This document shows, piece after piece, positions 2,573 through 3,836 of a DNA stretch of 6,421 nucleotides. Within the stretch, counting starts at the first letter, position 1; each line of letters opens with the position of its first letter. This stretch comes from a virus. Its lineage: Duplodnaviria > Heunggongvirae > Uroviricota > Caudoviricetes. The position numbers were made by a program, and so were the translations under genes. Under the pieces are notes generated by a model, which saw nothing but the letters and a program-made list of their open reading frames with translations, was not told the DNA's origin and searched no databases. Location of the stretch: the IMG/VR virus record IMGVR_UViG_2740892235_000009; one strand, given 5' to 3'.

Positions 2573-2892
2573 AACATATCCTGTATATTTATGTTGTTAC
2601 ATACAGGCGCTTTTAGTATCTGCCGCACGGCAGTTGTACTTCAGAATAAGATGCTTTTGTGACTGGTGGTGTTGTATCTGGGGTTAGCCAGGAGGCAGGT
2701 TCAGAGAGTCCGGTGGTAATTATGTGTATGCAGTGGTTGTTGCTGTACCGTGGGCAAGTTCTGGAACTGGCTTCGTCCATTGTAGATGATTGTTAGCTGG
2801 ATATCAGTTACCTCATGGAAATGTTAAATGACTCACAATTCGGTTGATGGACTATTGTCTGATCGATGGAAGTCTTGTAAAAACGAGCCAGC

Positions 2893-3055
2893 ATAGTGAA
2901 TCCCCCTGTGCGGAGGGGCGTCTGACATGGTCTCCATAGCGATGGTCACAATACGCAGATTCAGTAGTCAGGCTGAATCTACCGGGAGGCACCCGGCACT
3001 ATGCTGCTTATGGTGTATACATAGCGATCGGCCCCTCTCCGGAGGGGCTTTTTTT
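2893..3055 (+). ncRNA. Small-RNA cassette B1
   Basis: Promoter-like -35 TTGTCT (2855-2860), 17-bp spacer, TAAAAA (2878-2883). 5' end CATAGTGAAT with partner CACTATG after the central hairpin (compensatory change relative to other units). Terminator GCCCCTCTCCGGAGGGGC (3031-3048) plus T7. Confidence 0.6.
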
Positions 3056-3151
3056 GTGCGGGAAAAGGCTGTGTTGTTAAGTGTTAAATTCCTCACAGTT
3101 CAGATGGTTGATGCTTGCCTGTCTGAGGGGGAGTTGTTAAAAAAGTTCTGC

Positions 3152-3325
3152 ATGGTGAATCCCCCTGTGCGGAGGGGCGACTGGTGTGATTTGCATCTTT
3201 TCTGTTGTAGGCAATGCAAACGCGGGTTCAGGGACACCAGACTGGACTCACCGGGAGGCACCCGGCACCATGTTCATGATGATACAGATACGCAGTGTCA
3301 GCCCCTCTCCTGAGGGGCTTTTTTA
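3152..3325 (+). ncRNA. Small-RNA cassette B2
   Basis: -35 TTGCCT (3115-3120), 17-bp spacer, TGtTAAAAA (3135-3143). 5' CATGGTG / partner CACCATG. Terminator GCCCCTCTCCTGAGGGGC (3301-3318) plus T6. Confidence 0.6.
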
Positions 3326-3421
3326 TGCAGGAAAAACGCTGTGTTGTGAAATGTTAAATTCCTCACAGTTCAGATGGTTGATGCTTGCCTGTCTTACGGG
3401 GAGTTGTTAAAAAAGTTCTGC

Positions 3422-3585
3422 ATGGTGAATCCCCCTGAGCGGAGGGGCATATCAGCGCAGGTGTTTCTACTCTATCCTTTCTGTGCGGGTTCAGGTGCTG
3501 ATACTGAACTCACCGGGAGGCACCCGGCATCATGCATATGGTTAACAGACACGTAGCGAAGCCCCTCTCCGGAGGGGCTTTTTTA
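3422..3585 (+). ncRNA. Small-RNA cassette B3
   Basis: -35 TTGCCT (3385-3390), 17-bp spacer, TAAAAA (3408-3413). 5' CATGGTG with partner CATCATG (one G-U wobble). 5' hairpin loop variant GAGCGG. Terminator GCCCCTCTCCGGAGGGGC (3561-3578) plus T6. Confidence 0.6.
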
Positions 3586-3682
3586 TGCAGGGAAAAGGCT
3601 GTGTTGTGAAATGTTAAATTCCTCACAATTCATGAGGTTGATGATTGTCTGATTGATGAGGAGTTTGTTAAAAAAAACGGGC

Positions 3683-3836
3683 ATGGTGAATCCCCCTGTG
3701 CGGAGGGGTGATATCGTATCATTTCCTGTGTGGCCGACTGATATCACGGACATTTGTTCACCGGGAGGCACCCGGCACCATGCAGTATACAGAGATTAGG
3801 CATACATCCAGGCTCCTCATCGCAGGAGCCTTTTTA
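3683..3836 (+). ncRNA. Small-RNA cassette B4
   Basis: -35 TTGTCT (3645-3650), spacer, TTAAAAAA (3668-3675). 5' CATGGTG / partner CACCATG. Terminator of different sequence but same shape: GGCTCCT-CATCGC-AGGAGCC (3811-3830) plus T5. Followed by the conserved leader instead of another unit. Confidence 0.55.

Follow-up and report, generated by a model that had tools for sequence, protein, structure and literature searches.

A tandem array of four STnc100-family small RNA genes in a lambdoid prophage, with reassorting 3' segments and a predicted AraC-like target

STnc100 is among the most abundant annotated small RNA (sRNA) families of enterobacteria (PMC9029176); it flanks Shiga toxin genes and its single nucleotide polymorphisms have been reported as predictors of haemolytic uraemic syndrome (PMC12711010). 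The family has no experimentally confirmed direct target and its architecture is unexplained (PMC7873438). In this work we have analyzed a stretch of 6,421 nucleotides from a virus of the Caudoviricetes (IMG/VR virus record IMGVR_UViG_2740892235_000009), referred to as the window, which contains an array of four STnc100 genes in tandem and two further copies. Representatives of the family from enterohaemorrhagic and enteropathogenic Escherichia coli (EHEC and EPEC) have been supported by Northern blots, Hfq crosslinking or ligation and sequencing of interacting RNAs (RIL-seq) (PMC4104026, PMC7873438, PMC8550237, PMC5331693). EcOnc27 of strain Sakai, which is sRNA103 of strain EDL933, is crosslinked to Hfq, is detected on Northern blots at about 235/247 nt (Tree et al.) and is destabilised in the absence of Hfq; EDL933 harbours 11 transcribed STnc100 copies, one of them confirmed by Northern blot. 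PasD1 and PasD2 of EPEC E2348/69 are homologues of EcOnc13, for which a literature search found no papers, and PasD2 has been mapped by RNA-seq to 741157-741328. AsxR and AgvB are short opposite-strand partners in sRNA dyads located between the late promoter and the lysis genes.

Six units were recovered on the plus strand of the window by a hidden Markov model (HMM) built from the six copies, by alignment and by Tandem Repeats Finder (TRF), the last reporting an array of period 270 at 3031-3708. An initial annotation made from the sequence had described a tandem array of four units sharing one scaffold, which was recovered by all three approaches, and two further copies at 849-1097 and 4661-4910, which were found at 840-1110 and 4654-4923. 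The units, with the type of their second internal segment (V2) and their score with the Rfam family RF02076, are as follows:

840-1110, plus strand: unit A, a solitary STnc100 copy; V2 type a; RF02076 172.4 bits (nhmmer)
2816-3068, plus strand: unit B1; predicted RNA about 2891-3056 (166 nt); terminator 3030-3049; V2 type f; RF02076 119.5 bits (nhmmer)
3072-3338, plus strand: unit B2; predicted RNA about 3150-3325 (176 nt); terminator 3300-3319; V2 type b; 140.8 bits
3342-3598, plus strand: unit B3; predicted RNA about 3420-3585 (166 nt); V2 type c; RF02076 141.7 bits
3602-3848, plus strand: unit B4; predicted RNA about 3681-3836 (156 nt); terminator 3810-3831; V2 type d; 141.3 bits
4654-4923, plus strand: unit C, an STnc100 copy aligned to Sakai Sp5; V2 type a; 159.1 bits

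Each unit is about 260 bp long and presents a conserved promoter, two hairpins and a terminator, together with two internal segments that differ between units. Little or no variation was seen in the hairpin at the 5' end, in that at the centre (CCGGG-AGGCA-CCCGG) or in the terminator, in agreement with the conserved hairpins described initially. Mean identity in the array was 0.94 for the block of helices P1 and P2, 0.90 for the P5/P1 block and 0.78 for the terminator, and it amounted to 0.30 in insert 1 (V1, 32-58 nt) and 0.38 in insert 2 (V2, 24-27 nt).

All six units matched RF02076 (STnc100) at full length in cmscan, with 119.5-172.4 bits vs. a gathering score of 47; E-values ranged from 1e-26 to 4e-40, and the matches are therefore far beyond chance. 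In O157 Sakai the RF02076 match (207.7 bits) was located directly downstream of stx2B and convergent with AsxR; unit C, on a contig separate from the array, also lies directly downstream of stx2B, which is the position of EcOnc27/sRNA103. The four genes of the array are paralogues belonging to STnc100, a known family of prophage sRNAs (EcOnc27/sRNA103) related to PasD. The suggestion of a candidate new phage RNA system did not hold, as by cmscan the units are ordinary RF02076 members and belong to a catalogued family.

The units share with RF02076 the hairpins, the closing helix, the terminator and the prophage location. In contrast, the 11 copies of EDL933 are dispersed whereas four different alleles stand in tandem here, the Rfam consensus structure lacks a pseudoknot that is present in the units, and the outer helix that the model draws to V2 received no support in them. 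This helix, between the promoter-proximal region and V2, was rejected: every V2 tried with every upstream region gave background energies (-9 to -19 kcal/mol), and the region lies upstream of the start site inferred from PasD2, which excludes it. With respect to EcOnc27/sRNA103, unit C occupies the same site after stx2B and B4 carries the same V2 type (d, by alignment to Sakai), whereas the V1 of EcOnc27 differs from that of every unit in the window, its partner is AsxR in contrast with a convergent partner of a different family here, and its reported size is above that predicted for the units. PasD1 and PasD2 share with the units the promoter and start-site geometry, the architecture and the position upstream of an esterase gene, and their seed is in a 3' single-stranded segment homologous to V2. 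However, P2 and P5 are degenerate in PasD, which scored 41.4 bits, below the gathering score; its 3' segment is longer and contains the seed UGUGAG, absent from B1-B4; and its copies have been reported as dispersed, not in tandem. The PasD-type sequence (seed UGUGAG before the GGCUGCGCA terminator) was not found in the V2 of A, B1-B4 or C, which use other terminators, and the relationship of the units to PasD is at the family level only.

The AsxR and AgvB families, which the initial annotation had considered as possibly covering the units, share with them the intergenic dyad between cargo and lysis genes and the logic of a constant plus a variable part. They are, however, 51-60 nt long, on the opposite strand, variable at the 5' end and without homology to the units. 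Neither RF02702 nor RF02703 (AgvB/AsxR) matched the window at E ≤ 10 (88.1 bits in the Sakai control), the units being 156-189 nt long and sense to late transcription, so that membership was rejected. OmrA/B, PrrF1/2 and Qrr1-5 are multicopy Hfq sRNA paralogues, each with its own promoter and terminator, and they resemble the units as adjoining paralogous genes. In those systems conservation falls on the seed, whereas in the units it falls on the scaffold, with putative seeds that differ and are reassorted; the units, unlike those loci, are on a mobile element and vary in copy number. A CRISPR array was rejected (period of about 260 bp, a promoter and a terminator in each unit, no cas-like open reading frames [ORFs]), as the initial annotation had argued. 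A protein-fragment origin, proposed there as a possible refutation, was rejected as well, Pfam being empty for five ORFs across the array. A tRNA or tRNA-like gene was also discarded, ARAGORN reporting 0 genes in the window; by inspection only, the four-way-junction connectivity of the units is cloverleaf-like.

With a promoter, a structured body and an intrinsic terminator of its own, each unit has the appearance of a self-contained sRNA gene. The promoter consists of TTG(C/T)CT, a spacer of 17-18 bp and TGTTAAAA, which ends 7 nt before GCATGG, and it was kept in 51 distinct upstream sequences. In the E2348/69 genome the RNA-seq 5' end of PasD2 corresponds to the G of GCATGGTG, 7 nt after TAAAAA; this supports the unit promoter and puts the predicted length of the six RNAs at 156-189 nt. 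Both results are in line with the sigma70-like promoter initially assigned to each unit, and the strong intrinsic terminators assigned along with it were flagged in all six cases (19 terminators found in the scan vs. 3.8 expected). With respect to the beginning of the RF02076 model, the start site deduced from PasD2 is about 20-29 nt downstream; in unit A the match starts at 890 and the start site is at 909 (19 nt). With regard to the EcOnc27 locus of Sakai (L002:3423-3628), a conserved TGTTAAAT box about 55 nt further upstream of the promoter could be a second promoter.

For the analysis of RNA structure, 114 units were gathered from IMG/VR contigs, Sakai and the window, and 48 distinct cores were aligned, anchored at both ends. 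The closing helix P1 (GCAUGGUG with CACCAUGC) changed on both sides at 7 of 8 pairs. In B1 this helix is formed by GCATAGTG and CACTATGC, with a compensated A-U pair that also removes the ATG (ATAGTG), and in the minimum free energy (MFE) fold of this unit P1 closes a multibranch loop. Hairpins P2 and P5 and the junction nucleotides were invariant across the 48 divergent cores, and no covariation was found at the fifth pair (T-A) of the 5' hairpin. Helix P3 is formed by the 6-9 nt located directly after P2, which pair with the loop of hairpin P4, and both sides changed at 6 of 6 pairs. In the covariation test for P1 and P3, pairing was obtained in 81% of the cells vs. 39-48% with the partners slid; in an alignment-free test, a helix of at least 6 bp was present in 90% of the true arm pairs vs. 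29% when arms were swapped between types. The pseudoknot is CUGGUGU/ACACCAG in B2 and UAUCAGCGC/GUGCUGAUA (9 bp) in B3; in the fold of B4 the P3 helix is nested and not knotted. A pseudoknot in STnc100 appears to be undescribed. We infer that the 5' domain probably fulfils a separate role.

Insert 1 comprises the 5' arm of the pseudoknot, a variable hairpin and the 5' arm of P4, and since the pseudoknot and the P4 arm covary it is not a free guide. This modified the initial picture of a constant scaffold with swappable guide- or seed-like inserts: V1 and V2 do reassort, with crossover in the scaffold, and insert 2 is the likely seed, whereas insert 1 has covarying helix arms at its ends, which build a pseudoknot around the variable hairpin. 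In units A and C (1038-1061 and 4860-4883) the 3' strand of P1 can also pair locally with the start of V2 (CACCAUG-NUC-AUGGUG), and in their MFE folds the P2 strands pair with the terminator strands, the 5' arm of the terminator being able to pair with the 3' strand of P2. Riboswitch-like switching in these two units was set aside because the alternative conformation is not conserved across the family, failing in members with other terminators.

V2 lies between the 3' strand of P1 and the terminator and was largely unpaired in MFE folds. The two inserts had been described initially as completely different between units; their low identities agree with this, except that five of the six V2 (all but B1) share an ACAGA core, extended to AUACAGA in four of them. 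About 10 discrete V2 types occurred across loci, each of them conserved and combined with different V1 types. The inserts therefore represent a limited set of discrete, individually conserved alleles, in contrast with the hypervariability across prophages that the initial annotation had proposed to look for. In PasD, the seed UGUGAG is in the segment homologous to V2 and pairs with the target motif CUCACA obtained by RIL-seq. The Hfq cluster of EcOnc27 in crosslinking and analysis of cDNAs (CRAC) falls on the 3' ~80 nt, after a shift of about 137 nt between two versions of the Sakai record. By analogy in position with these two homologues, V2 is likely the seed segment. The V2 of B4 is:

3783-3809, plus strand: V2 of B4, predicted seed CAGUAUACAGAGAUUAGGCAUACAUCC, between the 3' strand of P1 and the terminator in the fold and at the position homologous to the PasD RIL-seq seed

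The four-unit array was present with at least 99% identity in 89 of 5426 complete E. coli genomes; the NCBI Prokaryotic Genome Annotation Pipeline (PGAP) annotates nothing in it, and no sequenced phage record covers it. Other contigs contained B1-B3-B4, B1-B4, B1 plus a B3/B4 chimera, B3 or B4 alone, or a C/B2 hybrid, and in the allele survey B3 appeared as a single copy at three loci (L069, L089 and L107). These variants and chimeras indicated that crossover within the scaffold changes copy number and reshuffles the cassettes. Tandem pairs were found in 81 IMG/VR contigs and in eight loci from seven GTDB species representatives (Pantoea, Superficieibacter, Leclercia). The fetched loci included 35 pairs, 41 triples and nine quadruples, the relaxed pattern over-calling a few arrays with implausibly short spacing, and tandem units from these other loci were also above the Rfam threshold. 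Triples are located after Q and a pR'-tR'-like pair and before the holin gene, and they keep positional orthology (median identity 83%). The tandem, copy-number-variable arrangement of STnc100 appears to be undescribed. In other Enterobacterales, a match to isrI (RF01392) was found between STnc100 units, overlapping a 69-aa ORF (L071:5220-5316 and L131:5617-5713).

A predicted target of B4 was found in the window itself, in the following gene:

1479-2204, plus strand: AraC-family (Psr-like) regulator gene, with Pfam domains HTH_18 and HTH_AraC

The V2 of B4 (3783-3809) formed with positions 1480-1506 a duplex of -27.7 kcal/mol, a value reached by 0 of 3000 shuffles. These positions comprise the start codon and the first nine codons (+1 to +27) of the AraC-like gene; with both strands of the window considered, no other non-self site was better for this V2, and the regulator start had a z value of -5.3 relative to 69 other phage gene starts. 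A second regulator allele, about 68% identical, is carried by over 700 genomes of E. coli, O157 among them. Types b, a and i, but not type d, matched its start region (-22 to -25 kcal/mol), the position on the mRNA being the same. Among 75 phage gene starts, the regulator genes took first rank with types a, b and d, and in AR_0013 the local unit matched the local regulator allele. In contrast with these results, nothing beyond shuffles was obtained for V2 with the start regions of the tolA-like gene, orf92 and the esterase gene in the window, and the AraC homologues of phages ev203 and ev099, which are distant (37% identity), were not matched by any V2 type. This allele-matched complementarity to AraC-like regulators appears to be undescribed; from it we infer that B4 regulates the AraC-like gene. 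The 5' end of the gene (TTCAAAATGGATG--TTGCCTGCTCTG, 1462-1500) also resembles the upstream/-35 region of the units (TTCAGATGGTTGATGCTTGCCTGTCTG; 860-900, 3100-3140 and equivalents), a likeness that hints at shared ancestry; no complementarity of V2 to upstream regions arises from it.

PsrA and PsrB activate GadE and repress type III secretion. The regulator at 1479 is Psr-like, its likeness to PsrA and PsrB being by kind and not by name. A tentative extension, which we consider possible but doubtful, is that STnc100 3' segments act as allele-matched translational repressors of prophage Psr-type AraC regulators, the array controlling its own and co-resident alleles whilst the 5' domain recruits a conserved partner. 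If true, the array would be a battery in which B4 addresses its own gene at 1479 and types a and b the O157-type allele of co-resident prophages. Should the target pairing hold, STnc100 would be linked to a regulator family for acid resistance and type III secretion; should it fail, the locus would simply be an unannotated multi-copy instance of a known sRNA.

As a whole, the data are best explained by four paralogous STnc100 sRNA genes that occupy a prophage cargo slot and act in trans via V2, to which we give a probability of about 0.7. Family membership, anatomy, covariation, cassette reassortment and complementarity were observed in this analysis; transcription of the array units, Hfq dependence of their RNAs and the position of the seed are taken from literature homologues, a discrete Hfq-associated transcript being known for EcOnc27, the EDL933 copies and PasD only. 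According to this explanation, the array occupies a lambdoid prophage's cargo (moron) slot, with the antiterminator Q and phage tRNAs on one side and esterase and lysis genes on the other. A sigma-70 promoter in each unit would drive its transcription, which would begin at the G of GCAUGG and end at the unit's intrinsic terminator, to give an RNA of about 156-176 nt. In the 5' domain, P1 would enclose P2, P5, P4, the variable hairpin and the pseudoknot P3 (strand after P2 with the P4 loop), and the single-stranded segment of 24-27 nt by the terminator would be the likely seed and Hfq-binding module, base-pairing in trans. With a different seed type in each of its four units, the array would provide four regulators that act on different targets; the seed of B4 would occlude the start codon of the AraC-like gene 2 kb upstream. 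Homologous crossover in the conserved scaffold would let the array grow, shrink and reshuffle. This amounts to a new arrangement of a known family, to which a predicted target lead is added. What is added here is a scaffold that is a pseudoknotted multi-helix domain, putative seeds that form a small set of cassettes, recombining and stacking into arrays, and two or three cassette types predicted to pair allele-specifically with the start codons of prophage AraC-like genes.

Several points weigh against this explanation. In Northern blots EcOnc27 is larger (about 235/247 nt) than the inferred start site would predict (~177 nt), so that 5' ends may differ. The unit promoters were not flagged in a generic promoter consensus scan, because the -10 TAAAAA lacks the terminal T. 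Some EDL933 copies show high ribosome coverage, with a ribosome coverage value (RCV) up to 3.2, and invariant loops plus a pseudoknot are unusual for a mere Hfq sRNA scaffold. As for the target, only two regulator alleles are involved, the second group being 91-100% identical within itself; duplex energies ignore accessibility; EcOnc27 of O157 (type d2) had no match to the O157 regulator alleles examined (-13.3 kcal/mol); and types c, e, f, g and h are without a predicted partner.

Among the alternatives, the one that retains some weight, although we regard it as unlikely, is that the pseudoknotted domain itself is the functional part, as an RNA that binds a protein, the ribosome or an RNase, or as a cis element of the Q-antiterminated late transcript, the arrays providing dosage and the variable segments being passengers. 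The invariance of P2, P5 and the junction nucleotides in the 48 cores and the covarying pseudoknot would fit it, as would the location of the units between Q/late promoter and holin in the contexts examined, the positional orthology of the triple arrays, members lacking their own terminator or with a 3' extension of 170 nt, GGAGG in both invariant hairpins together with the ribosome footprints on some copies, and a review that calls the reason for this arrangement unclear. However, the homologues are discrete Hfq-dependent RNAs whose RIL-seq targets are set by the 3' segment, PasD is functional despite degenerate P2 and P5, V2 types are individually conserved on different V1 backgrounds, and they are complementary to one gene family in an allele-specific manner. 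Such a function of the domain and seed pairing may exist side by side. The view of the units as mainly insulators and recombination scars, where a stack of terminators would protect the esterase and lysis genes against cargo read-through in the lysogen, the conserved blocks would be crossover points and the RNAs would be idle, has against it the compensatory changes in P1 and P3, which reflect selection on RNA structure and not on DNA. We consider this improbable, given also that a dedicated promoter is kept in the 51 variants, that a single terminator would suffice and that the homologues are abundant and Hfq-bound; on its side are the four co-oriented strong terminators between cargo and lysis cassette with dyads that terminate bidirectionally, the copy-number variants and chimeras produced by frequent scaffold crossover, and the esterase-leader remnant and methyltransferase pseudogene that follow unit A.

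Short leaderless peptides (MVNPP...), starting at the AUG within GCAUGGUG, had been doubted in the initial annotation since B1 has no ATG, and they are very improbable because it is pairing, and not coding, that is preserved. ORFs starting with MVNPPVRRG are present in five of six units and RCV is above 1 for some EDL933 copies; nevertheless, B1 (ATAGTG) carries the compensating change on the paired strand (CACTATGC), GUG or another triplet stands there in about half of the divergent cores, with swaps that preserve pairing (23 G-C vs. 22 A-U at one pair), frames and lengths diverge after residue 9, and no Pfam family matched. Repeated pR'-tR' modules or put-like RNAs that make RNA polymerase termination-resistant, which the initial annotation had listed for exclusion, are already largely refuted and the least probable of all. 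The units do lie downstream of Q in the late operon, and the first unit of one locus (L071) follows a pR'-tR'-like pair, but the unit HMM detected nothing similar in the Q-proximal regions of L001 and Sakai (L002), unit and core HMMs gave no match in nhmmer at E ≤ 10 for HK022, the carrier of putL and putR, and homologous transcripts end at their own terminator.

Three minus-strand elements face units of the window:

3838-3915, minus strand: convergent sRNA-like element forming a dyad with B4; terminator 3849-3871
1098-1165 and 4914-4985, minus strand: sister convergent elements; terminators 1110-1131 and 4923-4944

The first of the two sister elements follows unit A. Although at the dyad position of AsxR/AgvB, these elements matched neither RF02702 nor RF02703 at E ≤ 10. 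Their sequence, CACGUUUU(A/G)UUGUU..CCUUGC..CCCGCGUCUCCCAGCGCGGGCUUUUUU, is close, by eye only, to the EPEC RIL-seq candidate E2348C_1409.E2348C_1408.IGR.

Runs of N at 4413-4422 and 6110-6119 revealed at least three contigs scaffolded together in the window. The sequence of 1-4412 is identical to that of a lambdoid prophage found in Shiga toxin-producing E. coli negative for the locus of enterocyte effacement, e.g., O113:H21 FWSEC0010. In this strain the locus contains RusA, Q, a hypothetical gene, a DNA methyltransferase, tRNA-Ile, tRNA-Arg and a TolA-C-domain protein, followed by one unit, the AraC-family regulator, a small ORF, the four units, a SASA esterase and the holin/lysis genes, all co-oriented from Q through the holin/lysis genes. 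The type of location known for RF02076, with co-oriented units between Q/late promoter and lysis genes of a lambdoid prophage, is thus present. In positions 4423-6109 there are, from an Stx2 phage, the 3' end of stx2B, the sixth unit and the esterase gene. A 249-bp tandem repeat at 5872-6359 was rejected as an assembly artefact, because the same esterase segment occurs twice, joined across the gap. Besides the regulator gene, the following features were found:

1-72: 3' part of a phage tRNA-Arg gene, cut at the window edge (detected by Rfam and not by ARAGORN)
354-782: protein with a TolA C-terminal domain and a lipoprotein-like N-terminus
2294-2572: 92-aa ORF with no Pfam match

The cargo slot, which holds stx in Stx phages, is filled here by 354-782, 1479-2204 and 2294-2572. 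After unit A and its convergent partner, positions 1195-1420 comprise a truncated leader of the esterase gene (cf. 5035-5100) and then a DNA methyltransferase pseudogene (PGAP); this segment looks like the scar of the recombination that brought in the regulator module.

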